Shown here piece by piece: positions 1 through 16,471 of a stretch of DNA of 64,000 bases (positions are counted from its first letter, which is position 1; each line of letters starts with the position of its first letter). The DNA comes from a bacterium (GTDB lineage Bacteria; UBA8248; JACPRG01; G963555815). The stretch covers positions 1,504,001 to 1,568,000 of the forward strand of contig OZ244653.1 in NCBI GenBank assembly GCA_965218795.1, read 5' to 3'. Made by a program: the position numbers and the translations under genes. The notes beneath the pieces were generated by a model, which saw only the letters and a program-made list of their open reading frames with translations, was not told the DNA's origin and searched no databases.

Positions 1-251
1 GCATCGTCCTTTTTCCGGATTGGCGCAGCCTTGACAACTTCCTCGAGTTTCTCCCGCCCCTGCCTTGCCTCCTCCAGCGCCTGTCTCGCCTCCTCCAGGG
101 TCTGTCTCGTCTTCTCCAGGGTCTGTTCAAGCCTGTTGATACGGGTTTCCAACTCTTCCAGCGTCGCCGCATTGACAACCACCGGGAACGACAGAGCCAA
201 AACAACGCACAACAAGCAATTCGTGAGAATTTTCTGAACAAAACCCATCAT
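1..251 (-). CDS. Partial secreted protein with N-terminal coiled coil (possibly outer-membrane porin), runs off window
   Basis: Manual translation MMGFVQKILTNCLLCVVLALSFPVVVNA-ATLEELETRINRLEQTLEKTRQTLEEARQALEEAR: signal peptide, then heptad repeats. Confidence 0.6.
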   Translation of the reverse strand, partial: MMGFVQKILTNCLLCVVLALSFPVVVNAATLEELETRINRLEQTLEKTRQTLEEARQALEEARQGREKLEEVVKAAPIRKKDD

Positions 252-618
252 TCCATTACCCCCCCCAGAAAATAATGTGTATGACATAGGTTTCTTTCCG
301 AACCACTTCCCGTTGCCCAAAATCGGGGTTGTTTGCGCCATCCCTGTAAGAGTCAGTCAATCGATCTCCACGGCGGGAAGTCGCCCGTGTTCTGCCGGAT
401 TCGTCGATCTTCAACCAGCAATTTGCTAATTTCACCAAACGAGGGCTAAAATGTCAACAGAATTATCTTTGGTAGTAAATCGTTGGGGATCGGCTTCGCC
501 GAAATCGCCCGAACACAGAGCCAGCACGGCAGGAGCGACCGTTCGCCCTCGGCAGTTGCTCCGGACCAACCCTTCTCTTATGACGTGACGCGCAGAACAC
601 CCAAAGGAGGATTCAGTG

Positions 619-1653
619 ATGAAACTCAAAGCTCTTACGCTCGCCGTCGTCGTCGCGCTCGGCATGGCGGGGGCCGCCGTCGCGCCCGGCAAGGCGGAAG
701 CCGTCTGCAAGGTCCATATCGGCGACCTCAACTGGGACAGCGCCAATTTCCACGACCAAGTGGTCGCCTTCATCCTGAAGCACGGATATGGCTGCGAGGT
801 GAATCTGACCTATGGCGGCACCCTCCCGATCATGGCGGCGCATTACCAGCAGAAGAACGACCTGATCATGGAGCTCTGGTACGACAACGTGAAGGACCAA
901 TACGACGACGCCAGGAAAAACGGCAAGGTCCGGATGCTGAGCGCCAACACGCCGGACAGCGAGCAGGGCTGGTACATCCCGCGCTACGTCCAGGAGGCGA
1001 ACCCGGGCCTCCGGTCGGTCCATGACCTGCCGAAGTACAAGCACCTGTTCACGGATCCCGAGGAGCCTTCGAAGGGGCGTTTCGTGAACTGCATCCCCGG
1101 CTGGTCCTGCGAGGTCATCAACTCGGTCAAGCTGCGCGCCTACGGGCTCGAGGAGAGCTTCACCAATTTCCGGCCGGGCTCGGGCGGCGCGCTCGCGGCG
1201 GCGATCAAGGGCGCCTATCTCAAGAAGAAACCGGTGCTCGCCTATTACTGGGTGCCAACGTCGCTTCAAGGTCAGCTCGATCTCGTCAAGCTCGAAGAGC
1301 CGGAATGGAACCAGGCCGATTGGAACGAGATGATGAAGCACGTCCTCGCGGTCAAGAAGGACGGCGAGGAAGCCATGGGCAACCCGACCAAGGCGACGGC
1401 CTACCGGACCATGGAGCTGCCGAAGTCGGTCAGCACCAGGTTAGCGACCCAAAACCCCGAGATCATCGCCTTCATCGAGAAGTACACCCTGCCGTCGAAT
1501 GCGGTCTCGCAGGTGCTGTTCTATCTCGAGAACGAGGCGAACGGCGACGCCAAGGACACCGCCATCCACTTCCTCAAGACCAATGACGTCTGGAAAGGCT
1601 GGGTTCCGGCCGACGTCGCCAGGAAAGTCGAAGCGGCGCTCGCCTCGGCCTGA
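619..1653 (+). CDS. proX: Glycine betaine/proline/histidine-type ABC transporter substrate-binding protein
   Basis: RBS AAGGAGG, signal peptide, NWDS, ELW, EQGWYIP, CIPGWSCE, YYWVP motifs; operon context. Confidence 0.88.
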   Translation: MKLKALTLAVVVALGMAGAAVAPGKAEAVCKVHIGDLNWDSANFHDQVVAFILKHGYGCEVNLTYGGTLPIMAAHYQQKNDLIMELWYDNVKDQYDDARKNGKVRMLSANTPDSEQGWYIPRYVQEANPGLRSVHDLPKYKHLFTDPEEPSKGRFVNCIPGWSCEVINSVKLRAYGLEESFTNFRPGSGGALAAAIKGAYLKKKPVLAYYWVPTSLQGQLDLVKLEEPEWNQADWNEMMKHVLAVKKDGEEAMGNPTKATAYRTMELPKSVSTRLATQNPEIIAFIEKYTLPSNAVSQVLFYLENEANGDAKDTAIHFLKTNDVWKGWVPADVARKVEAALASA

Positions 1654-1717
1654 GGCGCGCCCGCGCGGCGCCCTCCTCCGGGAGGCGCCGCATCGCATTC
1701 GTGAGGAGGTGTTCATC

Positions 1718-2617
1718 GTGGAATTACTGCGCAGCCTGTTGCCCGACTGGGCGGTCGAATGGCCGAAGAGCCTGAACCTGCCGCTCAACAGTTGGACCAA
1801 CGATTTCGTGCGATGGCTGGTCACGGAGTACGGCATCGTCTTCGAGGCCGTTTCCAATTCCATCCTCGCGGTGTTGGTCGGCCTCGAGCATTTCCTGCGC
1901 GACCTGCCCTGGACCGTCACGTTGCTGGGCGTGGTCGCGCTCACCTATCTTTCCAGCGGCCGCAAGTGGGGCGTGACCGCGCTCGTGGGCGGCTCTCTGC
2001 TGTTGATGGGCGTCGTCGATCCCAAGCTCTGGGACTCCGCGATGATGACCCTCTCGGTGATGCTGGTCTCGACCCTGATCTGCATCGTCGTCGGCATCCC
2101 GATCGGCATCGTCCTGTCCCACGGCGACCGTCTCCGGCACATCGTGCTGCCCGTGCTCGATCTGATGCAGACCATGCCGAGCTTCGTCTATCTCATTCCG
2201 GCGATCATGCTCTTCGGCCTCGGGGCGGTGCCGGCCGTGTTCGCCACCGTGATCTACGCGATTCCGCCGGTCATCCGCTTGACCGACCTCGGCATCCGCC
2301 TCGTCGACAAGGAGGTGGCCGAGGCTTCGGACTCCATGGGCGCAAGCCGCAGGCAGAAGCTGATCGGCGTGCAGATACCGATGGCGCTCCCCAACATCAT
2401 GCAGGGTCTCAACCAGACGACGATGATGGCGCTGGCGATGGTCGTGATCGCCTCGATGATAGGAACCCGCGGGCTCGGCAACGAGGTGTTGCTCGGCTTG
2501 CAGCAACTCAACGTCGGACGTGCGCTCGAAGCGGGCGTGGCGATTGTGCTGCTCGCCATCGTCATGGACCGGTCGACCCAGGCCTACGGCAGGCGGCTCA
2601 TCAAGGCCGCCGGATGA
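1718..2617 (+). CDS. proW: ProW-type ABC permease
   Basis: LDLMQTMPSFVYLIP and GLNQTTMMALAMVVIASMIG motifs; GTG start after GAGGAGG. Confidence 0.9.
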   Translation: MELLRSLLPDWAVEWPKSLNLPLNSWTNDFVRWLVTEYGIVFEAVSNSILAVLVGLEHFLRDLPWTVTLLGVVALTYLSSGRKWGVTALVGGSLLLMGVVDPKLWDSAMMTLSVMLVSTLICIVVGIPIGIVLSHGDRLRHIVLPVLDLMQTMPSFVYLIPAIMLFGLGAVPAVFATVIYAIPPVIRLTDLGIRLVDKEVAEASDSMGASRRQKLIGVQIPMALPNIMQGLNQTTMMALAMVVIASMIGTRGLGNEVLLGLQQLNVGRALEAGVAIVLLAIVMDRSTQAYGRRLIKAAG

Positions 2618-2627
2618 GAGCAGGACG

Positions 2628-3680
2628 ATGGCGCTGATCGAGCTCCGGAACGTCTACAAGATCTTCGGGGAGTCCCCGGCCATCGCGATGAACATGGCCG
2701 GGGACGGGGCCGACAAGAGAGAAGTGCTGGCCGAGACCGGATGCACGCTCGCCCTGCGAGACGTCAACCTCTCCGTCGAGCGCGGCGAAACCTTTGTAGT
2801 GATGGGCCTTTCCGGCTGCGGCAAATCCACCTTGCTCCGCCATATCAACCGGCTGATCGACCCGACCGCCGGTCAGGTGGTGGTCGACGGACAGGACGTG
2901 ATCCAACTCGCCCGGAAAGAACTGGTCGCGTTCCGCCGCAAGACCGCGAGCATGGTCTTTCAGCATTTCGCGCTCTTCCCCCACAAGACGGTGACGGAGA
3001 ACACGGCATACGGCCTCGAAGTCCAGGGGGTGGCGCGCGAGGAGCGCATCCGGCGCGCGCGGCGATGGATTGAGAGCGTCGGGCTCACGGGCTACGAGGA
3101 TGCGTACCCACACCAGCTCTCGGGCGGCATGCAGCAACGGGTGGGCCTGGCGCGGGCGCTCTGCATGGACGCCGAGATCCTGCTCATGGACGAGCCCTTC
3201 AGCGCCCTCGATCCGCTCATCCGCAATCAGATGCAGGACCAGTTGATCGAGCTCGAGCGCGAACTTCACAAGACCATCGTATTCATCACCCACGACCTGG
3301 ACGAGGCACTCAAGATGGGCGACCACGTCGCCATCCTGAAGGACGGCATTGTGGAACAGGCCGGCGGCCCGGAGGAGATCCTGCTGAATCCGGCCACAGA
3401 CTACGTGCGCGAGTTCGTGAAGGACGTGAACCACAGCCGCGTGGTGACGGCGGGTACGATCATGACGCCGCCGAACGGCGCGGAGGGCGGGCCGACCGTC
3501 ACGCGCGCCACGGTCATCCGGGACCTGCTGCCGAAGTGCCTGGAGAACGAGACACCGCTGCGGGTGATCGAAGACGACGGCTCCGTGGTCGGCGCCGTCT
3601 CGCGAGAGACCGTCCTGCGCGCTCTCGCCAAGCAGCCCGGGCCGGCTCTCCTCAGTGACCCCCGTCTGGTTCAACCATGA
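2628..3680 (+). CDS. proV: ProV-type ABC ATPase with degenerate CBS tail
   Basis: GLSGCGKST, LSGGMQQRVGLARAL, LLMDEPFSALDPLIR, FITHDLDEA. Confidence 0.92.
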   Translation: MALIELRNVYKIFGESPAIAMNMAGDGADKREVLAETGCTLALRDVNLSVERGETFVVMGLSGCGKSTLLRHINRLIDPTAGQVVVDGQDVIQLARKELVAFRRKTASMVFQHFALFPHKTVTENTAYGLEVQGVAREERIRRARRWIESVGLTGYEDAYPHQLSGGMQQRVGLARALCMDAEILLMDEPFSALDPLIRNQMQDQLIELERELHKTIVFITHDLDEALKMGDHVAILKDGIVEQAGGPEEILLNPATDYVREFVKDVNHSRVVTAGTIMTPPNGAEGGPTVTRATVIRDLLPKCLENETPLRVIEDDGSVVGAVSRETVLRALAKQPGPALLSDPRLVQP

Positions 3681-4050
3681 CGGCAAGTTCACCCATGTGA
3701 ACCCTGCGCGAGGGACTCGCAAGGACGCGAAACATGAGGCGGGACCATCGGACGGCCCTCTCTATTTTGGGTCCCGACGACGACTTTCGATATCTCGAGA
3801 GCCGGGCCCGCGTCGTGAAAATCCGCGAGAAACCGGACGGGTTCAAAAACACACGGGATACGACAACTACGGCGGATCCGGCGAGATTCGGGTCATGTAC
3901 GAAATTTTGCCGGAGCGAGCGACTGACCCGCCTCCCTCGTTGAGCCCGAGATGAAATGATATAATGGGGCTTGCGCTTGGCCGGGAGCGCGCCCGCGTAC
4001 CCGCACGATACATTGGATACCACAGGCATCGGATCGTTATGTAGCAGAAT

Positions 4051-6252
4051 ATGGCGCCCAAAGAACCGCTCAAGATACCCACCCTGCCCTTTGAAAACCT
4101 TCTACTGCCCGATTCCTTTCAGGAACTGGACGATCTGGCTTTCAACCTCCTATGGATTTGGACGGCCAAGACCAGGGCCCTTTTCCGCCGCGTCGAATGG
4201 CGCAACTTGAAACCGAAACGCCAAAACCCCGTCGAACAAATCCTCGGCCACGACTGGCACGAATGGGAAACCCTGATCGCGGACCCGGCCTTCGAGGAGA
4301 GCTATCAAGAAGCTCTCCAAGGGCTGCATCAATACATGAGCGGCCTTGAAGCCTCCTGGTTTCACAAGCGCTACGGAGACCCGGATACCGGACCCATCGC
4401 CTACTTTTCGATGGAGTACGGCCTTCACGACTGTCTCCAGCTTTACAGCGGCGGCCTCGGTGTCCTGTCCGGCGACCATTTAAAGGCCGCGAGCGACCTT
4501 GGAATCCCTCTCGTCGCCGTCGGCCTGCTCTATACACGCGGGTATTTCTACCAAGAGATCGGTCTGGAGGGGAGGCAACAGCACATCTATCCGAATTATG
4601 ATTTCTCGCGCCTCCCGATTCGCACGGTCAAGGCCCCACAGGGCGGCCCGCTCCTGGTTCCGGTCGAGTTCCCCGGCCGGACCGTTCATGCAAAGGTCTG
4701 GAAAGTTCAGGTGGGACGCGTGCCTCTACTCCTCCTCGACACCGACATCCGCGAAAACGATCCCGCCGATCGGTCCATCACCGGCCAGCTTTATGTCGCG
4801 GGCCGGGAAATGCGGCTCTGCCAGGAAATCGTCCTGGGCATCGGCGGCGTCCGGGCCCTCCGGGCCCTTGGGATCAAGCCCTCGGCCTGGCATCTCAACG
4901 AGGGGCACTCTGCCCTCCTCTGCCTGGAAAGGATCCGGGAGTTCGTGGACGAAGGCCGAAGCCGGGAGGAAGCCGCTGAAGAGGTGAGGGCCACCACCGC
5001 CTTTACCACCCACACGCCCGTTCCCGCCGGACAGGAACAATTCGACCGGGATCTGATGGAATGCCATCTCGCGCCTTTTACCGCGGGAACCGATTTGGAC
5101 AGCGCGGAGCTTCTGGCATTGGGCTCGCCCGTTCCGGAGCAAAAGGACATCTCTTCCTTCAGCCTGACCGCCCTCGCCCTCCGCCTCTCGGCCTACGCCA
5201 ACGGCGTCAGCGCGCTCCACGGAGAGGTCAGCCGAAGCATGTTCGGCTCCATACGCGATGAGACCCCCGAGGCTACGCCACCCATCGCCCATATCACCAA
5301 CGGGATACACGCGCCCACCTGGATCGGCCGGGACATCCGGCGGCTGCTGGACTCCCCGGACGGGGGCGATTGGACCGAGCTCTTTCACGACGGTGCCCGC
5401 GGCTGGGAGCGAGCCGTTGAACAGCTCCCCGACGAGGATCTCTGGACGGCCCACCAAAGCCAGAAGGACCGGCTCTTCCGGGTCGTTCGCCAGCAGGTCA
5501 GCGACCAGATGGCGCGTCACGGCGCCGGGCCGGACGAGTTACGGGCCACCCGGGAAATGTTTTCGCAGGAAATCTTCACGATCGGATTCGCGCGGCGGTT
5601 CGCCACGTACAAACGGGCCGAACTTCTGTTCAGCGATCCGGACCGACTGCACGCGCTCGTCAACGACGAAGACCGTCCCGTCCAGATCCTCTACTCGGGC
5701 AAGTCGCACCCGGCCGACGGGCCGGGGCAGGAAACCCTCCGCAGTGTTTATCAATTTTCGAAGGACCCCTCCTTCTCCGGCCGGATCGCGGTGTTGGAGA
5801 ACTACACCATGCGGCTTGGCCGCCTCCTCGTCGGGGGCGTCGACCTCTGGCTGAACACCCCACGGCGTCCCCATGAAGCTTCGGGGACCAGCGGGATGAA
5901 AGCGGCCCTGAACGGCGTCATCCATTGCAGCGTTCTGGACGGCTGGTGGGATGAGGGGTATGACGGGGAAACCGGATGGGCCGTCGGAGACAGGGAGGAG
6001 TTCGCTTCGGAGGAAGAGCAGGACCGGCACGATGCCGACTCCCTTTACGATCTCCTCGAAAACTCCATTCTCCCCCTTTACTATGAGCGCAACGAACAAG
6101 GCCTCCCCCGGGGCTGGCTGGAGATGATGAAAACCTCGATGGCCAGACTGGCGGTACGGTTCAGCGCAGACCGGATGGTCCGGGATTATACCGAGCAGGC
6201 ATATGTCCCCCTCGCCGGCGTCCCCCCGCAAGAGAGAAACCAAGCGTCTTGA
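4051..6252 (+). CDS. glgP: Alpha-glucan (glycogen/starch) phosphorylase
   Basis: YFSMEYG, YSGGLGVLSGDHLK, HLNEGH, FARRFATYKRA, EASGTSGMKAALNG (PLP Lys). Confidence 0.95.
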   Translation: MAPKEPLKIPTLPFENLLLPDSFQELDDLAFNLLWIWTAKTRALFRRVEWRNLKPKRQNPVEQILGHDWHEWETLIADPAFEESYQEALQGLHQYMSGLEASWFHKRYGDPDTGPIAYFSMEYGLHDCLQLYSGGLGVLSGDHLKAASDLGIPLVAVGLLYTRGYFYQEIGLEGRQQHIYPNYDFSRLPIRTVKAPQGGPLLVPVEFPGRTVHAKVWKVQVGRVPLLLLDTDIRENDPADRSITGQLYVAGREMRLCQEIVLGIGGVRALRALGIKPSAWHLNEGHSALLCLERIREFVDEGRSREEAAEEVRATTAFTTHTPVPAGQEQFDRDLMECHLAPFTAGTDLDSAELLALGSPVPEQKDISSFSLTALALRLSAYANGVSALHGEVSRSMFGSIRDETPEATPPIAHITNGIHAPTWIGRDIRRLLDSPDGGDWTELFHDGARGWERAVEQLPDEDLWTAHQSQKDRLFRVVRQQVSDQMARHGAGPDELRATREMFSQEIFTIGFARRFATYKRAELLFSDPDRLHALVNDEDRPVQILYSGKSHPADGPGQETLRSVYQFSKDPSFSGRIAVLENYTMRLGRLLVGGVDLWLNTPRRPHEASGTSGMKAALNGVIHCSVLDGWWDEGYDGETGWAVGDREEFASEEEQDRHDADSLYDLLENSILPLYYERNEQGLPRGWLEMMKTSMARLAVRFSADRMVRDYTEQAYVPLAGVPPQERNQAS

Positions 6253-6362
6253 ATGGAAGGCGCCGCACATCGGCCTGAGACAGCCGGTTCCCCCCATATC
6301 GGCTTTCCCCGAACATGATGAATGAAGGTCATGACAACTCCGTTTCGTCCACTGGAATTTAT

Positions 6363-6950
6363 CTTTTCTTTATAGTTTGTAACATGCCACAGAAACCGGA
6401 GATTGCCAAGTGGCGAGGAGTGAATTGATTCTGCGAGGGTTCCGTGTTCTGAAAACAGATGCGTTGGGTGGGACAAGTCAAAACTCCGAATGGAGCCCGA
6501 TGGGCGCTTCGTTCCCTCGATGCCAAGGCTGACGTCCGGACCAGCGTTGTCGTTCCCCGCCAGACCCGCTGCGTCCCGCACCGACTACAGGCGGTCCATG
6601 CCGCTCGACCCCGCCCCGAGGGACGGCGCCAGCCTCAGCGACAGGCCCCGGCCGTAACCGAGCAGGCCCCACGCCGACACGCGTTCGCTCAGGTTCACCG
6701 TCAGGTTGGACGTGGCGGGTAGCCGCCCGTCCGTACCAGCAACCGCTGCACCGACTTCGTGGAGCATCCGATGGCTGATGCGATCTCCGCGTGTGTCTGA
6801 CCGGCTCTGATCCGTTCTCTGATCTCGAGGCGATCACTCCTGCTTAGCCTTCCATGCTCCTCCCGTGGCCGCATCACCACCCCCCTGGCAATGAGTTGAT
6901 CATTACCAAGATGTTGCGTCGACCCCTTGAGACCGCCGGGGCAAATCCAG
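6363..6950 (-). repeat. Left inverted arm (588 bp): IS30-like end and HTH stub plus autotransporter-like fragment
   Basis: Direct sequence comparison with 9953-10668; lacks 141 bp present in right arm. Confidence 0.92.
6701..6940 (-). pseudogene. IS30-family-like left end and truncated transposase HTH
   Basis: MRPREEHGRLSRSDRLEIRERIRAGQTHAEIASAIGCSTKSVQRLL is HTH-like; preceded by GGCGGTCTCAAGGGGTCGACGCAAC, resembling IS30-family termini; no DDE domain. Confidence 0.6.
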
Positions 6951-6990
6951 GAGGCGCTTCTGAATTGGTGCGCATCGGCGCCGTTTCCCT

Positions 6991-7395
6991 TCACTCGTTT
7001 CGATCCTGCCTCGCCTGTACCAGGCAGTCATTAAACGATGCAGCCATGTTGCGGAGCAGGTTGAAGTACAACTCGGGTCCGCTCTCGATGGTCGAGCCCA
7101 AGGGATCGATAGTGCCGGCCCGCGCCGGCGTGCCTTCGATGATGGTATTGACGAGGCGCGGTTCGAACTGGGGTTCAGCGAACACACAGGTCACGGCCAG
7201 CTCGCGCACCTTGTCGCGGAGCTCCAAAACACGCCGGGCGCCAGGCGATCGCTCCGGGCTGACCACGGCCGAGCCGGCGGCGGTCAGGCCGAAGCGATCC
7301 TCGAAATACCTGTAGCCGTCATGAAAAACAATGAACGGCTTGCCGCGAACCGAAGCTACATCCGCGGCGATCTGCGTGGTCAGTTCGTCCAACCG
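6991..7395 (-). pseudogene. znuA: C-terminal fragment of zinc ABC substrate-binding protein
   Basis: KPFIVFHDGYRYFEDRFGL, SPGARR, CVFAEPQF, DPLG motifs; 5' part absent. Confidence 0.85.
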
Positions 7396-7397
7396 GT

Positions 7398-7670
7398 GCC
7401 CGAGCGCTGATACACCGGCCCGATCTGCTGGTCCTCGACGAACCGGTCCAGGGCGTCGATATCGCGGGGGCGGACGTGCTCCATGAACTGATCGACGAGA
7501 TTCGCCATGATCTCGGCTGCGGTGTCCTGTTGATCTCGCATGACCTCAAAACAGCCATGGATACCGGCGACGACATCGTGGTCCTGGTGCCCCACGAGCA
7601 TGACGAGCAGGCCCATGGCGGTGGCTCCGCGCTCGTTACCGGGTATCACGGCGACGAGCCGCCGGACTGA
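7398..7670 (+). pseudogene. znuC: C-terminal fragment of zinc ABC ATPase
   Basis: ARALIHRPDLLVLDEPVQGVD...GCGVLLISHDL; Walker A half absent. Confidence 0.8.
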
Positions 7671-7673
7671 GCC

Positions 7674-8333
7674 ATGCTGGACGACTTTCTCTCTCGCGCG
7701 CTGCTCGCCGGCATCGGACTGGCACTGGTCACCGGACCGGCGGGATGTTTTATCGTCTGGCGGCGGCTCGCCTATTTTGGCGAGACGATTGCGCATTCGG
7801 CTCTGCTCGGCGTTGCGCTCGCCATCCTGGTCGACCTCCACTTGTCGATCGGAATTTTTGCCACCGCCTCCATGGTCGTGCTGACGATGTTTTATCTCGA
7901 ACGGCGAGACACGCTTCCGGCCGACACATTGCTCGGCTTGCTCGCCCATGGCGGGCTCGCCCTCGGCCTCGTCATCCTGTCTTTCTTTCCGAACATGCGG
8001 CTGGATCTGCAGGCGCTGCTCTTCGGAGATATTCTTGCCGTATCACGCATCGATCTGGCTGTGATCTGGGTGGGTGCCGCCGTCGCGCTGGGGGTGTTGT
8101 GGTGGATCTGGCGTCCGCTGCTGGCAGCGACCGTCAGTGCCGATCTGGCCACCGTGGCGAGCCTGCGGCCGGAGCGCGCACGCCTAGTGTTCGGGATCCT
8201 CGTGGCGGCGGGCATTGTCGCGGTTGTGGGGGGATTGCTCGCCTCGGCGAAGTTCGACACGCCGGCTGGTCCCTCGATCGTCGTGACTGCATTGGCGCTG
8301 TTCATGGTCACCCGCATACGCCGTCCGGGGTAG
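7674..8333 (+). CDS. znuB: Zinc ABC permease, apparently internally deleted (219 aa)
   Basis: GPAGCFIVWRRLAYFGETIAHSALLG, LFGDILAV, DTPAGPSIVV; the usual VG.LLI.ALL.IPAA segment is missing. Confidence 0.8.
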   Translation: MLDDFLSRALLAGIGLALVTGPAGCFIVWRRLAYFGETIAHSALLGVALAILVDLHLSIGIFATASMVVLTMFYLERRDTLPADTLLGLLAHGGLALGLVILSFFPNMRLDLQALLFGDILAVSRIDLAVIWVGAAVALGVLWWIWRPLLAATVSADLATVASLRPERARLVFGILVAAGIVAVVGGLLASAKFDTPAGPSIVVTALALFMVTRIRRPG

Positions 8334-8508
8334 GCAGGAAGCGCTCGCTGAATTCCGCTCCATGGCCTTCACCGTTGCCGAATTCGCGAGACTGGTCGTT
8401 GGGCCCAAATGGTAAACCGAAGCAAGATCCCGCAACCACCATCGGAACCCCGGTCTTGTGACAGGCGAGGCTGCCATGGCGGGCGAATGGTACGAAACGG
8501 CGCGATGT

Positions 8509-9435
8509 TCAACAAGGCGCGGCGATGGAATCGTCGGTGCAGCCCTCCAACTCGATTTGCACCGTGACGTGGCTGATATCGAAGCGTTTGGCTAAGCGGG
8601 CTTGAATTTCGGCAGTGGCCGAATCCGGGTTGGCGCCCTCAATGATTCGTGCGTGCAGGGTCAGCAATGAGCGCTCTTGCGACAAGGACCAAGCGTGCAC
8701 ATGATGCACATCCTCGACGACGGCGATGTGCGAAACCAGATCCGGACCGATTTCACGGACCTCCAATTGCCCGGGAACGCCTTCAAGCAGCACATGCGCC
8801 GCATCCTTCACCAGAAACCAGGCGCTGCGCAGCACCAGCAGCCCGACCAGGACCGAGAGTAGCGGGTCGATCGGCATCCAGCCGGTCGTCATGATGATCA
8901 GCGCCGCGCCGACCGCCGCAGCCGAACCGAGCATGTCGCCCAGCACGTGCAAGAGGGCGCCACGGACATTCAGGTTGTTTCGGTCGGCTCCATGGAGCAC
9001 GACGAACGCGGCGACATTGACGACAAGGCCAAGGCCCGCCACCGCCAGCATCGGGCCGGCTTGCACCTCAGTCGGGTTGACGAGCCGGCCGGCTGCCTCG
9101 GCGAAGATCCAGCCCACGATGAATATAAGGCTAATACCGTTGGTAAAGGCGGCGAGAACCGGAAAGCGGTGGTAGCCGTAAGTGCGTGCCTTGTCGGCGG
9201 GGCGGCGGCTCAGCCGGAAGGCGATCCAGGCAAACAGCAGGGCCACCGTATCGACAAGCATGTGGGCGGCATCGGCCAGCAGCGCTAGAGATCCCGAGAT
9301 CACACCGCCGATCACCTCGGCGAACATGAAGCCCCCGGTCAGCAGCAGGGCCCAAAAGATGCCCCGTGCGTTGCTGCCATGCCCGGTCCCGGCATGTCCA
9401 TGGCCGTTCATATTGTGATTGCCGATCATGGGCAA
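8509..9435 (-). CDS. Cation diffusion facilitator (Zn/Co/Cd exporter, ZitB/CzcD-like)
   Basis: His-rich N-terminus, SLALLADAAHM, TYGYHR, ALLHVLGD, VHHVHAW, HVTVQIE. Confidence 0.92.
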   Translation of the reverse strand: MPMIGNHNMNGHGHAGTGHGSNARGIFWALLLTGGFMFAEVIGGVISGSLALLADAAHMLVDTVALLFAWIAFRLSRRPADKARTYGYHRFPVLAAFTNGISLIFIVGWIFAEAAGRLVNPTEVQAGPMLAVAGLGLVVNVAAFVVLHGADRNNLNVRGALLHVLGDMLGSAAAVGAALIIMTTGWMPIDPLLSVLVGLLVLRSAWFLVKDAAHVLLEGVPGQLEVREIGPDLVSHIAVVEDVHHVHAWSLSQERSLLTLHARIIEGANPDSATAEIQARLAKRFDISHVTVQIELEGCTDDSIAAPC

Positions 9436-9952
9436 GCCCTCGCCAACCGACGACCCGCCGCCGGAAAAGGTGGTTGCATCATTTTCGTCCGTATTGCAGC
9501 AAGTGCCGGGACAATCCTAGCGTGGCTTACCCTATCATGCTTCCCGCCGGCGTGGCCATACTCATCAAACGTCGGCGATCCGCTCAGCGGGCTCGCGGAA
9601 CTGCTTGATGGTCCAATCGGCGGCGTAATCTGAGTCACGCCGGCCGGCCATTGTTGATTAGCGGGGTGCGGTGCGATAGCCGCAGTTGCCGCCGCACCAA
9701 TGCGGAACCGGTGCAGTGACGCGAACGCCGAACGGCCACCGTCGGCGACGAGCGAGATGTCCGGCAGGCCCGGCTACGGAAACCGGCGAACATCGGCGGA
9801 GTGGATGAGAATCCCGATGTCGCCCATCCCGGCACAACTGAATCGTTACCAATAAATCGCCCATCCGGGCCATCACGGGTTGTCGGAACAGATACGGACG
9901 GATTCCACGGCCTGTCGGAACGATGACGTTTCACCCGGCGCAGGGCTGCGCA

Positions 9953-10668
9953 CTGGATTTGCCCCGGCGGTCTCAAGGGGTCGACGCACCATCTTGGTAA
10001 TGATCAACTCATTGCCAGGGGGTGGTGATGCGGCCACGGGAGGAGCATGGAAGGCTAAGCAGGAGTGATCTCCTCGAGATCAGAGCCGGTCAGACACACG
10101 CGGAGATCGCATCAGCCATCGGATGCTCCACGAAGTCGGTGCAGCGGTTGCTGGTACGGACGGGCGGCTACCCGCCACGTCCAACCTGACGGTGAACCTG
10201 AGCGAACGCGTGTCGGCGTGGGGCCTGCTCGGTTACGGCCGGGGCCTGTCGCTGAGGCTGGCGCCGTCCCTCGGGGCGGGGTCGAGCGGCATGGACCGCC
10301 TGTAGTCGGTGCGGGACGCAGCGGGTCTGGCGGGGAACGACAACGCTGGTCCGTCCGGCCGCCTGGACGCGGAGGTCGGCTACGGCCTGGGCGGTCCGTG
10401 GGACGTCGGGGTGGCGACCCCGTACGGGGGCCTCGCATTGTCCGAGGCGGGCTGGCGGACCAGGCGGACGGACATGCGCTGGCGGCTCGGTCCGGACGTC
10501 AGCCTTGGCATCGAGGGAACGAAGCGCCCATCGGGCTCCATTCGGAGTTTTGGCTTGTCCCACCCAACGCATCTGTTTTCAGAACACGGAACCCTCGCAG
10601 AATCAATTCACTCCTCGCCACTTGGCAATCTCCGGTTTCTGTGGCATGTTACAAACTATAAAGAAAAG
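9953..10668 (+). repeat. Right inverted arm (716 bp)
   Basis: Reverse complement of left arm; encodes barrel-like fragments NLSERVSAWGLLGYGRG and RLDAEVGYGL...TPYGGLAL. Confidence 0.92.
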
Positions 10669-10783
10669 GTAATCTTTCCTGCGGTGAATGCCCAAGCCCG
10701 TGCCTGGGGAGAAGTTTCAGGAGTGCAAGGCAGACCTCTCTCTGATTGCGACAAAAGCCCCTTGGCTGGAAAGGCTTCAGAAA

Positions 10784-13084
10784 ATGAGTGAACTCGCCTA
10801 CGTCGGGAAGAACGTCATCCGGTCGGATGCCTACGCCAAGGCCATGGGGGAGGCTCGATACACGGCCGACGTCAACCTCCCCGGCATGCTTCACGGACGC
10901 CTGCTGCGAAGCCCCCTCCCTCACGCCCGCATCCGGGGGATCCGGACCGAGGGCGCCGGGCAGGTCTCCGGCGTGAAGGCCGTCATTACCGGCGCGGACA
11001 CCCCCTACGCCTTCGGCGTCTCCCATTACGACCAGACCCCGCTGGCGATCGACAAGGTGCGTCACATCGGAGATCCGGTCGCGGCAGTCGCTGCGACGAC
11101 TTTTGACGCCGCCGAGGAGGCCCTGGCGCGGATTGAGGTCGATTACGAAGAATTGCCGGCGGTCTTTCACCCGGAACAGGCGATGGAGGCCGGCCAGCCT
11201 CTGATCCACGAGGACAAGGAGCGGAACATCGCCGCCCATATCCAATACAATGCCGGCGATGTGGACGAAGCCGTCCGGCAGGCCGCTCACGTCTTCGAGG
11301 ACGACTTCGAAACCTCCCGGCAGGCCCACCTGTGCATGGAGCCGCACGTTTGCGCGGCCCAGGTGGAACCCTCCGGAAGAATCACCTTTTATTACTCGAC
11401 CCAGGCCCCTTCCTATTCCCGGTCCCAGATGGCCAAGATCCTCAAGGTGCCGGAGAGCCAAATCCGCGTCATCACGCAAAACGTCGGCGGGGGCTTCGGC
11501 AGCAAGGCCACCGGAAAGTTTTGCATCGACTTCTGCGCCATTGAGCTGGCCCGCAAGGCGGGCCGTCCGGTGAAGATCGAGCACACGCGCGAAGAAGAGA
11601 CCGCGTACTCTACCTTTCGGCATCCGTTCATCGTCCACGTCAAGACCGCCCTGGACGACCAAGGCGTGATCACCGCGCGCGATGTCCGGGTGGTCATGGA
11701 TAACGGGGGGTATTGCGACTACGGGCCGGTGGTCTGCAACGTGGCCGGAGCCCTGGGCGGTACGCTCTACCGTTTCCAGAACTACCGCTACGAAGGGTTC
11801 GTCGTGTACACGAACAACCCATTCGGCGGTGCGATGCGGGGGCTGGGCAACCCCCAGATCACCTTCGCCTGCGAGACCCAGTTCAGCATGATTGCCGATC
11901 GGCTGGGAATGGACGAAGTCGATCTCAGGCTCAAGAACGCCGTTCGGGTCGGGGACGAGGCGGCCTCCGGAGCGCGGTTCGCCTCCTGCGGCCTGTCGGA
12001 ATGCATACGGGCCGTCGCGGATTCGATCGGCTGGGAGCAAGGGGGAGTCAAGGAAAAACGGCCGGCCGATTCCAAATATCGCGGCGTCGGGATCGCCTGC
12101 GGCGTCCACTTCGTGGGAGTTCGCCTGTCGCCCGGGATCGACGCCGACTTCGCCGGGGCGGCCGTCACGCTCAATGACGACGGGTCGATCAATCTCTCCA
12201 CGTCGGTCTGCGAAATCGGCAACGGGTCGAGCACGGTGCTGGCGCAGATGGCGGCGGAAGTGCTCGGCGTCCCGCCCGAGAAAATCATGGTCATCGCCGG
12301 GGATACCGACGTCATCCCGATGGGCTGGGGGGCGCGCGCCAGCCGCAATACCGCCATCGGAGGCGAGGCCGTGCGACGCGCGGCGGAGAAGGTCAAGGAA
12401 CAGGTCCTGAAGGTCGCCGCGGGGATGCTCGAGGCCAGAGGGGAGGATCTGGACGTCCGCGACGAGGGGGTTTCGGTGCGGGGCGCGCCCGAGCGCGCGC
12501 TTTCCCTGTCCGATATCGTCAAGGCCAACCGCTACCGCAAGGACGGACAGGCCATGTGGGCGCAGGTGCATTACGATGCCCCGAGCGAGCTGGCGGACAA
12601 GAAAACGGGACGGGGTAATTTTTCCAGCGCCTTCGCCTTCGGGGCCAAGGCGGTGGAGGTGGAAGTGGACCCGGAGACCGGCGAGGTGCGGATCCTGCGG
12701 GTCATCTCGGCTTCGGATATCGGCCGGGTGATCCATCCCCAGGGCGCCCAAGCGCAGATCGAGGGGGGATTCGCCCAATCCCTCGGCTTCACGCTGATGG
12801 AAGAGATCGTCTGCCAGGAAGGCCAGGTCACCAATCCCAACCTCATCGAGTACAAGGTGCCCACGACCCTGGATTTCACCCCGGTGGAAGGGATTTTCAT
12901 CGAGGAGGGCGACCCCCAGGGGCCCTGGGGAGCGAAGGGAATCGGCGAGATGGTGACCGTGGACGGAGGTCCGGCCATCGTGGCCGCGATACACGATGCC
13001 GTCGGGGTGTGGGCCACCGCTCTGCCCGTGACGCCGGACCGGCTGTGGCGCGGACTGAGCGAAACGGACAACCCTGACGGCTGA
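10784..13084 (+). CDS. Xanthine dehydrogenase-family molybdopterin-binding subunit (4-hydroxybenzoyl-CoA reductase alpha-like)
   Basis: RSPLPHARI, VGGGFGSK, AMRGLGNPQ, QIEGG, GAKGIGE. Confidence 0.9.
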   Translation: MSELAYVGKNVIRSDAYAKAMGEARYTADVNLPGMLHGRLLRSPLPHARIRGIRTEGAGQVSGVKAVITGADTPYAFGVSHYDQTPLAIDKVRHIGDPVAAVAATTFDAAEEALARIEVDYEELPAVFHPEQAMEAGQPLIHEDKERNIAAHIQYNAGDVDEAVRQAAHVFEDDFETSRQAHLCMEPHVCAAQVEPSGRITFYYSTQAPSYSRSQMAKILKVPESQIRVITQNVGGGFGSKATGKFCIDFCAIELARKAGRPVKIEHTREEETAYSTFRHPFIVHVKTALDDQGVITARDVRVVMDNGGYCDYGPVVCNVAGALGGTLYRFQNYRYEGFVVYTNNPFGGAMRGLGNPQITFACETQFSMIADRLGMDEVDLRLKNAVRVGDEAASGARFASCGLSECIRAVADSIGWEQGGVKEKRPADSKYRGVGIACGVHFVGVRLSPGIDADFAGAAVTLNDDGSINLSTSVCEIGNGSSTVLAQMAAEVLGVPPEKIMVIAGDTDVIPMGWGARASRNTAIGGEAVRRAAEKVKEQVLKVAAGMLEARGEDLDVRDEGVSVRGAPERALSLSDIVKANRYRKDGQAMWAQVHYDAPSELADKKTGRGNFSSAFAFGAKAVEVEVDPETGEVRILRVISASDIGRVIHPQGAQAQIEGGFAQSLGFTLMEEIVCQEGQVTNPNLIEYKVPTTLDFTPVEGIFIEEGDPQGPWGAKGIGEMVTVDGGPAIVAAIHDAVGVWATALPVTPDRLWRGLSETDNPDG

Positions 13085-13291
13085 TGGATCATTCAAAATA
13101 AACATGTTGGGGGAATCAAAAACACTCACGAGTTGTTGCCGATCCCTCGGGCGGTTTGCTAGGATGAGGAGTGAAATCATCCTGATACTCGGAAATGGGC
13201 AAAATGCTCTTCGTTCGCGGGGAATCCGATCGGCGAATTCCAATCCTGCGGTGAAATGTCGGAAGTTTCCATTCAGAGGAGATTGGAGAAG

Positions 13292-14560
13292 ATGAAAAAA
13301 CCTTTGTTGAAACGAATCTTTTGCGCTGGGATGCTCCTTGCGTTTGCGATGGTGTTCGCCGGTCCGCAAGTGCCCGGCGCGCTGGCGCAGAAGCCCATCA
13401 AGATTGGATTCGGTATGGCTCTGACGGGCGGGCTCGCGGCCAACGGAAAGGCGGCGGTTCTGGCCATGCAGATCTGGGCTGAGGATGTGAACAAGAAAGG
13501 CGGGATTCTCGGCCGCAAGGTCGAGCTCGTCTTCTACGACGACCAGACGAAACCCGCCACCGTACCGGGCATTTATACGAAGCTCCTCGACATCGACAAG
13601 GTGGACTTCGTGGTCTCAGGATACGGCACGAACCTCATCGCGCCGGCCATGCCCATCGTCATGGAGCGCGGGCTGGTGTTCATGGGCTTGTTCGGTCTCG
13701 CGGTCAACGAGAAATTCAACTACAACAACTACTTCCAGATCATGCCGGCGGGTCCGGATCCCCGGAGGGACTGGTCGAGGGGATTCTTCGAGATCGCCAT
13801 GGGTCAGAACCCCAAGCCGAAGACCATCGCGCTGATCGGGGCGGACGCCGAATTCGCCCGGAACGCGGTCTCCGGCGCCCGGGACAACGCCAAAAAACTC
13901 GGGCTCAAGATCGTCTACGACAATACCTACCCGCCCGGCACGCCGGACTTTACGCCGGTGGCCCGGGCCATCAAGGCGGCGAATCCCGACATCGTCTACG
14001 TGGGATCTTATCCTCCAGGGTCGGTCGGTTTCACCCGCGCGGCGTATGAGGTCGGGCTCAAGCCGAAGATGCTCGGCGGCGGGATGGTCGGCCTGCAGTA
14101 CGCTGTCTTCCTCTCGAAGCTCGGCTCGAAGTTGAACGGGATCATCAATTACGACTTCTGGGTGCCCGAGGCGACGCTGAATTTCCCGGGGATCGAGGGA
14201 TTTCTGAAGAAGTACCAGGCGAAGGCCAAGAAGATCGGCGTGGATCCCCTGGGGCACTATCTGCCGCCCTGGGCCTATGCCTATCTGGAGGTTCTGGGCC
14301 AGGCCATCGCGGGTGCGAAGAGCACGGACCAGAAGAAGGTGGGCGCATACATCCGAAGCCACACCTTCAATACGATTGTCGGCAAGGTCAAATTCGGCTC
14401 GAACGGCGAGTGGGCCAAAACCCGGACCCTCCAGGTTCAGTTCCAGGGCATCGAGGGTTCCGGCGTCGGCCAATTCAGTAAGCCCGGCAAACGGGTGGTT
14501 CTCTACCCGAAAGAGTGGAAATCCGGCCAGGTGATGTACCCCTACTCCAAGGTCAAGTAA
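13292..14560 (+). CDS. Liv-type ABC substrate-binding protein
   Basis: Signal peptide, IKIGFGMALTG, VNKKGGILGRKVELVFYDDQ. Confidence 0.9.
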   Translation: MKKPLLKRIFCAGMLLAFAMVFAGPQVPGALAQKPIKIGFGMALTGGLAANGKAAVLAMQIWAEDVNKKGGILGRKVELVFYDDQTKPATVPGIYTKLLDIDKVDFVVSGYGTNLIAPAMPIVMERGLVFMGLFGLAVNEKFNYNNYFQIMPAGPDPRRDWSRGFFEIAMGQNPKPKTIALIGADAEFARNAVSGARDNAKKLGLKIVYDNTYPPGTPDFTPVARAIKAANPDIVYVGSYPPGSVGFTRAAYEVGLKPKMLGGGMVGLQYAVFLSKLGSKLNGIINYDFWVPEATLNFPGIEGFLKKYQAKAKKIGVDPLGHYLPPWAYAYLEVLGQAIAGAKSTDQKKVGAYIRSHTFNTIVGKVKFGSNGEWAKTRTLQVQFQGIEGSGVGQFSKPGKRVVLYPKEWKSGQVMYPYSKVK

Positions 14561-14581
14561 GAGAGAGTCAGCGCGGAAAAG

Positions 14582-14622
14582 CAGGGGCACGCCCCCCCTC
14601 CACCAGGGGGGGCCGTGCCCTT
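14582..14622 (+). other. GC-rich intergenic stem-loop after SBP gene (mRNA stabiliser/attenuator)
   Basis: AGGGGCACGCCCCCCCT-CCACC-AGGGGGGGCCGTGCCCTT imperfect inverted repeat. Confidence 0.55.
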
Positions 14623-14645
14623 GTTTGCACTGAGGGGATGCTTGT

Positions 14646-15527
14646 TTGTTCAGCTTTGAACTGCTGTTGAACTCCATCGTGGCGGGATTGCTGGTAGGCG
14701 GGTTTTACGCGGCCGTGACCCTGGGGCTGTCCCTGGTCTTCGGTCTGCTGGATGTGGTGAACATCGCCCATCCCGTATTCGTCATCATGGGCTCCTACGT
14801 GACCTTCATGATGTTTGAGCGCTTCGGGGTGGACCCCATCCTATCGGGCTTGCTCTTCATGCCGGTTTTTTATCTTCTCGGGGTTGCCGTTTACCGGATT
14901 TACTACAACAGCTTCGAAAAGAAGGGGGCCGAATCCCTGCGGGGTTTGGTCTTTTTCTTCGGCGTTCTGTTTATCATCGAGGTTGCGCTGATCATCCTCT
15001 ACGGGGTGGATTACCGTCTGCTCGAGCCCTCCTATATCGGAGAGTCGATCCAGATCGGAGGTCTGGGAGTCGCCACCCGGCTGCTCGTGCCCTTCGCGGG
15101 CGGCTGCCTCCTGACGCTGGCGCTCTACCTGTTTCTCTCCAAGACCTTCTATGGAAAGGCCATCATGGGGGTGTCCCAGGACGGCCTCGCCCTCCGCCTC
15201 ATGGGGGCCGACCCAGTCAAGATTAAATCAATCGCCTTCGGAATCGGCATCGCTACGGCGAGCCTCGCGGGCGCCCTGCTGATCATCCTCGCCACGGTGG
15301 AGCCCTCCATCAACCGGGAGTATATCGGGCGGGTGTTCGCCATTGTCGTCCTGGGCGGCATGGGCAGCATCAGCGGAACGCTTGTGGCCTCTCTGATCCT
15401 GGGTCTTGCGGAAAGCCTGACGTCGACCTTCTACGGCCCATCCTGGGCTCTGGCGGTCTCCTTCGGGATACTCTTGATCGTCCTGGCCGTCCGGCCGTCC
15501 GGCCTGTTCGGGAGAAGCAGCACTTGA
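14646..15527 (+). CDS. Branched-chain amino acid-type ABC permease (LivH-like)
   Basis: GLSLVFGLLDVVNIAH, VVLGGMGSI, hydrophobic. Confidence 0.9.
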   Translation: MFSFELLLNSIVAGLLVGGFYAAVTLGLSLVFGLLDVVNIAHPVFVIMGSYVTFMMFERFGVDPILSGLLFMPVFYLLGVAVYRIYYNSFEKKGAESLRGLVFFFGVLFIIEVALIILYGVDYRLLEPSYIGESIQIGGLGVATRLLVPFAGGCLLTLALYLFLSKTFYGKAIMGVSQDGLALRLMGADPVKIKSIAFGIGIATASLAGALLIILATVEPSINREYIGRVFAIVVLGGMGSISGTLVASLILGLAESLTSTFYGPSWALAVSFGILLIVLAVRPSGLFGRSST

Positions 15528-16471
15528 AAAACAAAATTCTCCTCCTGCTCGGACTGGCGGTCATCGCCGCCGCTTTCATCCTGACCGGCCTCATCCAGAA
15601 CCAATATATTTATTTTTCAACCTACGTGATCCTTCAGTACATCGTCCTGGCGACCGCCTGGAACATCCTTGGAGGCTACACGGGTTATGTGAACTTCGGA
15701 ACCGCCGGATTTTTCGCCGTCGGCGCCTATACCACCGTCGCTCTGCTCAAAGCCTTCAACGCTCATTTTCTCGTGATCCTCGTCTGCGGTGGCATCTTTT
15801 CCGGGCTTCTGGGCCTCGGGATCGGCTATCTCACCCTCCGGCTTCGAGGCGTCTTCTTTGCCATCGCCACGCTGGCGCTCGCCGTCGTCCTGAAGACCTT
15901 CGTGGACAATTGGGAGTTCGTCGGCGGCGCCCGTGGGACCTACGTGATCCGGCCGAGGGAGATTCCCCTGTTTTCGAATTATGTGGAATTCCTGTTCGTC
16001 ATGATGATGGTGCTCGCCGTCCTGTCGGTAACCATTGCCTGGTTCATTGAAAAATCCTGGGTTGGGCGGGGTCTCGCCGCTATCCGGGACAACGAAGAGG
16101 CGGCCGAGTGCATGGGCGTGCCGGTGCTGAAGCTCAAGCTGTTCGCAACGACTGTCAGCGGCTTCTTGATGGGTGTCGCGGGAGCCCCCTTCCCCTACTA
16201 CATCACCTATTTGGAGCCGTCCTCCGCGTTCAGCCTGGATTATGCCGTCAACAGCCTGGCCATGCCGCTGATCGGGGGGACAACCACTTGGATTGGTCCC
16301 GTGATCGGTGCGGTCCTGCTGGGTACGGCCCAGCAGCTCCTCACGGTCACGATTTCTTCTGAATGGGCCCTCTTCTTCGTGGGGGTCGTGCTGGTGGGTT
16401 TCGTCATCCTCGCACCCGAAGGAATCGTCGGTCTGATCAGAAAAATCGCCGGCAAGAAGGGAGCTTCATGA
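15524..16471 (+). CDS. ABC permease (LivM-like)
   Basis: WNILGGYTGYVNFG, LRLRGVFFAIATLA, AIRDNEEAA. Confidence 0.9.
   Translation: MKNKILLLLGLAVIAAAFILTGLIQNQYIYFSTYVILQYIVLATAWNILGGYTGYVNFGTAGFFAVGAYTTVALLKAFNAHFLVILVCGGIFSGLLGLGIGYLTLRLRGVFFAIATLALAVVLKTFVDNWEFVGGARGTYVIRPREIPLFSNYVEFLFVMMMVLAVLSVTIAWFIEKSWVGRGLAAIRDNEEAAECMGVPVLKLKLFATTVSGFLMGVAGAPFPYYITYLEPSSAFSLDYAVNSLAMPLIGGTTTWIGPVIGAVLLGTAQQLLTVTISSEWALFFVGVVLVGFVILAPEGIVGLIRKIAGKKGAS

Follow-up and report, generated by a model that had tools for sequence, protein, structure and literature searches.

Tn5 and Tn10 carry complete insertion sequence (IS) copies with outside ends, possess a working transposase and are bordered by 9-bp target duplications, and in Tn6330 two copies of ISApl1 are arranged in direct orientation. 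Segments that are programmed for inversion, as in Hin/Gin, the fim switch and the shufflons, are bounded by short sites of some tens of bp and come with an adjacent recombinase gene and with a promoter or alternative gene ends. The tandem inversion duplications of Salmonella belong to the fold-back-type rearrangements. A 4.3-kb unit at positions 6359-10672 of the stretch analysed here bears some likeness to each of these systems. It consists of two inverted arms with IS30-family ends around a cargo with genes for metal transport. The stretch, in the following called the window, has a length of 64 kb (contig OZ244653.1 of assembly GCA_965218795.1, positions 1,504,001 to 1,568,000), and coordinates are window positions unless a genome is named; the source genome is designated G000, G001 is a genome from the same genus and G004 one from a second genus. 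With a probability of roughly two in three, we consider the unit an immobile relic, namely a single inverted segmental duplication that is anchored at the tip of an IS30-family element and is eroding by slippage deletions.

The IS30-family composite transposon Tn6330 (ISApl1-mcr-1-ISApl1) decays by illegitimate deletions and its cargo thereby becomes fixed, as has been published (PMC5821093). The unit in G000 resembles Tn6330 in that IS30-family ends bracket a short acquired cargo and in that IS copies are lost or truncated and the cargo is immobile. However, the ISApl1 copies of Tn6330 are whole when active and decay removes nearly all of them at joints of 1-4 bp, whereas the unit in G000 features left-end stubs only. 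Furthermore, these stubs are inverted, point with their tips toward the cargo and are each accompanied by 480 bp of co-duplicated non-IS DNA, and neither target duplications nor empty sites are known. With Tn5 and Tn10 the unit shares inverted IS-derived arms around a few kb of passenger genes, but it has no complete IS, no outside ends, no working transposase and no target duplication. Break-primed fold-back inverted duplications have been reported for yeast (PMC10622511). Such duplications are reported to exhibit, like our unit, a stretch copied in inverted orientation beside a unique spacer, novel illegitimate joints and no target duplication. Fold-back duplications are known there from selection or break-induction experiments, while in G000 the spacer measures 3 kb and the copy 0.72 kb, the edge lies at an IS tip and we infer the mechanism. 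As in Hin/Gin, the fim switch and the shufflons, finally, a segment is situated between inverted repeats and could flip, yet the ORFs (open reading frames) scanned at the unit revealed no comparable site or recombinase gene, and a promoter scan no promoter.

Anatomy and boundaries of the arms

A repeat search over 5000-12500 identified 6359-6950 (592 bp) and 9953-10672 (720 bp) as an inverted pair made up of four collinear blocks (I1-I4). In the global alignment of the two arms (733 columns), 575 of the 579 aligned bases are identical and the longest identical run, far beyond chance, extends over 268 bp. The four mismatches are located at 6362/10669, 6478/10553, 6831/10071 and 6914/9989, and there are three indels of 141, 12 and 1 bp. 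The 141-bp gap of the left arm aligns to 10354-10494 of the right arm; its joint, near 6536-6545, slides within flanking repeats of the CGGACC / GGTCCG type. The right arm is devoid of 12 bp, equivalent to four codons, between two CTCTGATC (= GATCAGAG) repeats, and the left arm contains a single additional C at 6880. An original prediction, made from the letters alone, had already recognized the inverted copies as well as the 141-bp loss between GGTCCG microhomologies and the 12-bp loss between repeats. All three are confirmed by the alignment, with the correction that the outer boundaries given at the time, 6363 and 10668, each fall 4 bp short. The absence of a target duplication, likewise part of that prediction, also stands: direct repeats are found neither in the outer flanks (ggaat/TTATC... 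and ...GGTAA/tctttcc) nor in the inner ones, and several alternative arm boundaries did not yield a target duplication either. Solely a 5-nt CTGCG recurs near the two ends of the right arm; it is off-register and was judged a chance occurrence without a formal control.

In each arm, three parts form a chimera: an IS30-family left end, a piece of a barrel pseudogene, and a stretch of AT-rich DNA that measures about 125 bp. BLAST, translation and homology searches thus agree with the predicted anatomy of an IS30-like end with a helix-turn-helix (HTH) stub that adjoins the cargo and reads outward, a barrel-like fragment and an AT-rich outer end. A BLAST comparison of the arm segments with the organism's own genome, one of the checks proposed along with the prediction, was run with 6200-10800 as the query. 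The IS part (6709-6950 in the left and 9953-10181 in the right arm) recurs elsewhere, while the non-IS 350-490 bp of each arm match the other arm only, apart from one 78-bp paralog of 82% identity at G000 4363546.

The IS tip, ...CCGGGGCAAATCCAG, lies at 6950 on the plus strand and adjoins the cargo. Positions 12 to ~241-246 of a 1217-bp element are kept in the stub, and nothing above ~246 is present in either arm. Over positions 12-241 the stub DNA shares 94-99% identity with the copies found elsewhere in G000. Taken alone, the stub gives a sub-threshold match to HTH_38 (22.1 bits versus a cut-off of 27). Assignment to the IS30 family was made on the full-length copy, in which the C-terminal ORF matches NF033563 (transpos_IS30; E 6.4e-75, 252 bits, cut-off 80) and which has matching end repeats. 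The flanking sequences of three further copies, c2837 (left end), c168 (right end) and c2368, cease to agree at one common point, TGGAGTTACC/CCGGCGG..., within 1 nt of the divergence of the arms. As the other IS copies diverge just where the arms stop matching each other, the inner edge of the duplication is the IS tip, directly abutting the cargo. We also considered TGGAGTTACC as a target half-site. A search for an uninterrupted palindromic IS30 target modelled on the tip motif, in which as many as 3 mismatches were allowed, found none, and the motif is more likely a part of the IS end.

Traces of the IS30-family element are present at ten loci in G000, including both arms. The sole full-length copy (G000:C1:2994510-2995726; L004 1490-2706) contains a transposase gene that is split over two frames, a 132-aa ORF with the HTH and a 341-aa catalytic ORF. 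Of the remaining copies, one contains a different IS that interrupts it and one has lost its 5' part, whereas all others consist of fragments. An intact cognate transposase is not visible in G000, and the element appears to be extinct in this genome. Within 6359-10672, the ORF list and Pfam reveal no transposase body, consistent with the predicted lack of a catalytic transposase. Nor does the unit contain a right IS end, as the arms hold left ends only. Two left-end fragments (G000:C1:552774-553065, L006, and 2936822-2937061, L007) make up a separate case. They differ in their truncation points, and both abut the 3' end of tRNA-Asn(GTT) and adjoin a near-identical 413-aa ORF, which we take to resemble a Y-family polymerase. 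Site-specific insertion at the tRNA end or segmental duplication could have led to this arrangement.

Translated outward, the barrel part reads ...SNLTVNLSERVSAWGLLGYGRG...DRL(stop)SVRDAAGLAGND...RLDAEVGYGLGGPWDVGVATPYGGLALSEAGW...SLGIEGTKR. In the right arm the in-frame stop is located at about 10303-10305 and the fragment is truncated at both ends. Neither Pfam nor NCBIfam provides a match at E<=1 except for one at chance level (0.074), and the look-alikes in a language-model protein atlas are generic outer-membrane barrels with low recognition. A length-relaxed homology search returned five matches at E<=0.01 among 1300 candidates. The matching sections are the very C-terminal ends of surface proteins of large size with passenger-type N-terminal domains and an aromatic last residue. 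P0153 (1698 aa, LRR domains) was aligned at residues 1605-1682, P0156 (732 aa, Calx-beta) ends with ...AAVHW and P0154 with ...RW. Homology, though not a curated model, thus supports the view that the middle of the arm is a piece of a putative pseudogene for an autotransporter-type C-terminal beta-barrel.

With regard to other kinds of elements, Rfam gave 0 matches over 5800-11200 at E<=1, so that a NiCo/czcD-type riboswitch or any other known RNA is ruled out both for the arms and for the region that precedes the cargo gene of the CDF (cation diffusion facilitator) exporter. A tRNA scan of 1-16000 found 0 genes and thus no tRNA-type attachment site, and the promoter scan detected 0 promoter-like sites in or adjoining the arms. 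Terminator-like sites are more numerous than expected (7 versus 2.9), none of them at the arm ends. The predicted RNA fold of the right-arm tail and the xdh leader is less stable than shuffled sequences (z +1.7).

Distribution of the arms and support from independent contigs

When 40 relatives were searched, the non-IS part of the arm was found in G004 only. An exact scan of 185,579 species genomes yielded one stretch, which is the same G004 contig, and two metagenome scans, one for the stub/barrel joint and one for the AT tail, yielded 0 matches in collections from which records close to the source genome may be missing. In G004, the region C4:897542-908412 (L024) is 95-97% identical to window positions -2290 to 7020, reaching from an NMT1-like gene through glgP and the left arm to 73 bp of the cargo; for glgP, the arm and the cargo piece the identity is 96-97%. 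It includes a second NMT1-like copy in G004. As xdh is only 79% identical between G000 and G004, the much higher identity of the 10.9-kb block suggests that it was recently transferred between the two genera. The homology is cut at window position 7020 by a 1117-bp IS, of which G000 has seven ~99% identical copies, and beyond this IS no match to the cargo is present in G004. Transfer of the block as a simple composite transposon is not shown, a second copy of the 1117-bp IS being absent from 893000-925000.

The arm in G004 features both left-arm junctions. Both the 141 bp and the 12 bp are still present in it, but a deletion of ~130 bp has occurred elsewhere, equivalent to 10246-10375 of the right arm. 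A database protein from a 7.7-kb contig, P0152, reads across an arm in the left context, in which a ~130-bp deletion with a slightly different joint is combined with a 27-bp deletion. We conclude from these alignments that the right arm is the most complete copy, that the left-arm site is older than the exchange between G000 and G004, and that the barrel-coding repeats lose DNA independently in each lineage. Since the deletions differ from lineage to lineage, there is no selection that maintains the arm sequence. Upon comparison with itself, G000 displays 12 inverted pairs that measure at least 250 bp and lie within 30 kb, the arm pair included. Of the remaining eleven, we checked four. Three are multicopy IS (6, 11 and 16 genome matches) and one is a 298-bp two-copy pair of 90% identity, so that the arm pair is, among the pairs examined, the sole near-identical two-copy pair with long and largely non-IS arms.

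Seven sequencing runs from four studies contain the stretch. We analysed the Logan contigs of four of these, one per study (X1, X2, X5 and X6); one may be the source sample. Contigs leading from glgP to 6392, 34 nt into the left arm, occur in 4/4 runs. On the opposite side, contigs run from the right arm into xdh and start at 10639 (34 nt inside) in X2, X5 and X6 and at 10658 (15 nt inside) in X1. Contigs from the cargo side (8830-9982 in X2 and 9428-9981 in X5) enter the right arm by 29-30 nt. Its interior is represented by unbranched 517-nt contigs over 10152-10668 in X5 and X6 and by a 195-nt contig (10324-10518) in X2 that covers the region missing from the left arm. At 10310, where both arms of G000 have a T, X1, X5 and X6 read C, a weak hint at exchange between the arms. 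In X5 and X6 no contig lies on 6404-6637 and the depth of the 517-nt contig is 1.2-1.9x that of the flanks, which would fit two identical full-length arms and is not taken as evidence. The joints 7619>10979, 9849>9897 and 7268>9038, all of low support, were disregarded; they have sides of 21-31 nt or inserted letters.

Origin of the unit

Both arms contain the same stub/barrel and barrel/AT-tail joints. The chimera therefore predates the copying and was copied once, as a block, from the IS tip. The following order of events is what we infer. Foreign DNA would have been acquired, and an IS30-family element would have inserted beside the 3' end of znuA. A deletion may then have joined IS position ~241-246 to a barrel pseudogene. 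A single copying event would have placed a second, inverted version of the resulting chimera at the opposite end of the cargo, its inner edge within 1 nt of the IS tip, and erosion would have continued from then on. For the copying step we envisage a second IS30 end on the right-hand side of the cargo, where IS30 homology could have allowed a strand to invade or a fold-back to prime. From there, synthesis would have proceeded outward for 720 bp, via the truncated stub and into the flank, before an illegitimate join was made about 110 bp upstream of xdh. We put forward such copying primed by IS30 homology, be it through strand invasion or fold-back, tentatively and as the most likely route; transposition was probably not responsible. 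The edge would coincide with the tip because the homology between two IS copies begins there, and inverted orientation and a missing target duplication would be consequences of the proposed priming.

Several points speak against an immobile duplication of this kind. An inner edge at the IS30 tip has the look of a junction made by a transposase. The account by recombination or fold-back requires a second IS30 end, which is unobserved, and no intermediate state, that is, a genome with a full IS30 element at the right junction or with the left arm only and an intact cargo, was found. G004, cut by an IS 73 bp into the cargo, is uninformative with respect to a former right arm. Copying between the arms may have run in either direction, and the contigs end inside the repeats so that the orientation of the cargo is unreadable from them. 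It is also conceivable that the unit was mobilised in trans in the past, while the IS family was alive. Finally, there is a weak similarity ~15 bp past both outer ends (6345-6362 and 10669-10688; 12/17 with a 3-nt indel; CCACTGGAATTTATC versus CCGCAGGAAAGATTACC). Its GGA..TT.CC part shows a loose likeness to the IS tip TGGATTTGCC and may be due to chance.

Four other explanations compete with the immobile duplication. One of them takes the 720-bp arm itself as the mobilised unit: copying would have begun at the tip of a truncated IS30-family element without its right end, continued for 480 bp into the adjoining DNA, and led to the insertion of the product, inverted, at a distance of 3 kb. The copy indeed starts within 1 nt of the IS tip, and its far end has no relationship to the IS, a feature also of the one-ended mobilisation by other IS families, of which ISEcp1 and IS91 are examples. 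If true, a defective IS30 element could in this manner copy the DNA beside it and so surround a cargo with long inverted repeats. Template switching during copy-out, as discussed for the IS30 family in PMC5821093, would add to the case. In the same paper, however, single-ended ISApl1 structures are traced to deletion and not to mobility. In addition, neither arm has a 2-3 bp duplication, the outer end exhibits only a ~10-nt loose likeness to the IS tip (TGGAATTTATC versus TGGATTTGCC) and none to the repeat core, and there are two copies only, at a single locus. We therefore regard one-ended copying as unlikely. Movement of the whole 4.3-kb unit as a non-autonomous composite or fold-back transposon, with the outer ~130 bp as its ends and a transposase acting in trans, had been offered in the original prediction and appears very improbable to us. 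Long terminal inverted repeats do bracket the cargo, IS30-family fragments are scattered through the genome, and no more than ~110 bp separate the end of the right arm, at an insertion edge, from the xdh start. Nevertheless, the IS tips point to the cargo and the ends that are present are thus inside ends, with no pair of outward-facing ends. The outer ends have neither the IS30 repeat core CCGGCGGTCTCAAG nor a target duplication, an intact cognate transposase is missing from G000, and the arm sequence differs between lineages. A second insertion site was not encountered, either: the unit occupies one locus in G000, G004 shares the same left junctions, and the collection scans gave 1 and 0 matches. 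The composite element of the prediction is hence not supported.

The arms might also, in line with the invertible cassette named as the alternative in the original prediction, serve as recombination sites of a programmed cassette that flips the CDF/znu segment and thereby changes expression. Identical runs of up to 268 bp are ample for homologous recombination, and the T>C change at 10310 in X1, X5 and X6, together with contigs that are unbranched across the arm in X5 and X6, gives the weak hint of arm exchange mentioned above. Against this, the ORFs that were scanned between -2.3 kb and +14.5 kb include no gene for an invertase or recombinase, a 19-aa integrase tail being all that remains, and the promoter scan gave 0 sites in or adjoining the arms. 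Moreover, the arms are freely eroding pseudogene debris and all cargo genes but one are broken. A programmed switch is accordingly extremely doubtful, and flipping, if there is any, would plausibly be passive and homologous only. Least of all do we believe in a fold-back or chimeric join of the long-read assembly. The genome does consist of a single contig, and inverted repeats flanking short segments are a known pattern of assembly artefacts. But the arms differ by private indels and 4 SNPs (single-nucleotide polymorphisms), contigs of independent runs and studies extend over each of the four unique junction neighbourhoods, outer as well as inner, and G004, the genome of another genus, has the left arm together with its two junctions. 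The original argument that private deletions speak against an assembly fold-back is therefore upheld and is extended by contigs bridging both outer junctions.

Cargo, genomic context and consequences

The 3.0-kb cargo (6951-9952), in which the genes of zinc transport are broken for the most part, comprises znuA', 'znuC, a damaged znuB, an intact CDF exporter gene and the tail of an integrase gene (Table 1), with 'znuC joined back-to-back to znuA'. The tyrosine integrase to which the tail remnant belongs has intact paralogs elsewhere in G000, and no recognisable coding was found in the rest of 9436-9952. The CDF protein matches PF01545, PF16916 and TIGR01297 (269 bits, cut-off 82). With the ZitB equivalog it scores 316 bits over positions 7-298 of 313; as this is below the cut-off of 408, the metal specificity is left unassigned.

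Table 1. Positions and characteristics of the arms, the cargo genes and the flanking genes in the window.
Feature	Position	Strand	Remarks
Left arm	6359..6950	- (read outward)	Without 141 bp of the barrel fragment, extra C at 6880; repeat search and alignment
AT-rich outer tail, origin unassigned	6359..6490	.	Single-pair sequence; GC about 0.48-0.52
Barrel pseudogene fragment (putative), internal, deleted version	6491..6708	-	Translation and homologs
IS30-family left end	6709..6950	-	End repeat core and first 57 transposase codons (HTH); blastn/tblastn
znuA' pseudogene	6991..7392	-	Last ~128 of ~340 residues; ZnuA profile 142-263 of 263; BLASTP, S. meliloti ZnuA 213-339
'znuC pseudogene	7398..7667	+	Starts at ~residue 140, just before Walker B; internal gap; without N-terminal ATP-binding half
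znuB	7674..8333	+	In-frame loss of 42 residues; 219 aa versus 275; Pfam and BLASTP
CDF (ZitB/CzcD-like) cation exporter, intact	8509..9435	-	Sole apparently whole cargo gene; full-length homologs
Tyrosine integrase, C-terminal tail remnant	9571..9628	-	19 aa, YAADWTIKQFREPAERIAD; no Pfam match
Right arm, the most complete copy	9953..10672	+	IS30 stub 9953-10181, barrel fragment 10182 to ~10548, AT-rich tail ~10549-10672
glgP-type alpha-glucan phosphorylase (DUF3417 and Phosphorylase), left flank	4051..6252	+	Inside ~12-kb insertion, non-native; Pfam and synteny
Molybdopterin (xanthine dehydrogenase/aldehyde oxidase type) large subunit, xdh, right flank	10784..13084	+	Native, syntenic in G001 and G004:C6

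Among the 120 matches listed for the CDF protein, the named ones are from Rhodospirillales/Defluviicoccus only (79-81% aa identity), and not a single match at E<=1e-20 was obtained in other genomes of the phylum (0/50). The znu remnants fit best to the alphaproteobacterial layout znuA-znuC-znuB. The cargo thus looks foreign, pointing at horizontal acquisition with alphaproteobacteria as the closest named relatives. At 90% identity or more, the CDF protein is found in ~12 other database sequences, on contigs of up to 3.1 Mb. Contigs of runs X1 and X5 skip 7744-7885, i.e. 142 bp of znuB, with 11 nt shared at the joint, and X2 covers the interval unskipped. This is a strain polymorphism and a case of ongoing decay of the cargo. 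A second version of the znuA' 3'-region (6978-7299), ~3-7% diverged, was noted in the same samples (X2, X5 and X6). In X6 it resides on a 467-nt contig, the first 145 nt of which are unlike the left arm, and it may represent the same DNA in another context or organism.

G001 is collinear with G000 over 14 kb up to the NMT1-like gene, which is followed by ~1 kb with a UPF0047 gene and then by xdh. In G004:C6 the NMT1-like gene and xdh are 0.8 kb apart. The distance amounts to ~12 kb in G000 and accommodates a porin gene, a small coiled-coil ORF, genes for an OpuA-type glycine-betaine ABC transporter, glgP and the 4.3-kb unit. An insertion of ~12 kb (G000:C1 ~1502580-1514783, about -1420 to 10783 in the window) that is not present in G001 and G004:C6 therefore ends with the 4.3-kb unit on the xdh side. 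The empty glgP-xdh site that the original prediction proposed to look for in relatives does not exist; glgP belongs to the insertion, and the relatives show adjacency of the NMT1-like gene and xdh. The UPF0047 gene of G001 was not found at the G000 locus with the query used. By ortholog alignment, xdh starts with the ATG at 10784, 111 bp past the right arm, and the intergenic DNA upstream of it is too diverged among G000, G001 and G004 to fix the right boundary of the insertion to the base.

On the basis of its sequence, RecA-mediated flipping of the 3-kb cargo or conversion of one arm by the other may be possible via the identical runs of up to 268 bp. The CDF gene itself is fixed in place, and the present-day consequences of the arrangement are passive. 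The unit, in which one foreign gene is intact, is an ordinary product of IS-driven genome decay. Its arms, which are long and inverted, its IS ends and its metal-transport cargo are superficial marks of a composite transposon on what is, in our reading, an immobile scar, and automated annotation would mislabel it. The sole point that specialists in transposition might take up is the edge of the duplication at the IS30 tip. As a case study, the locus illustrates what becomes of foreign DNA in a genome rich in IS, where it is fixed and worn down through fusion of an IS stub with debris, duplication, and lineage-specific loss of barrel-coding repeats. The CDF exporter, for which the 50 genomes searched from the phylum hold no close homolog, may matter for the metal tolerance of the organism.

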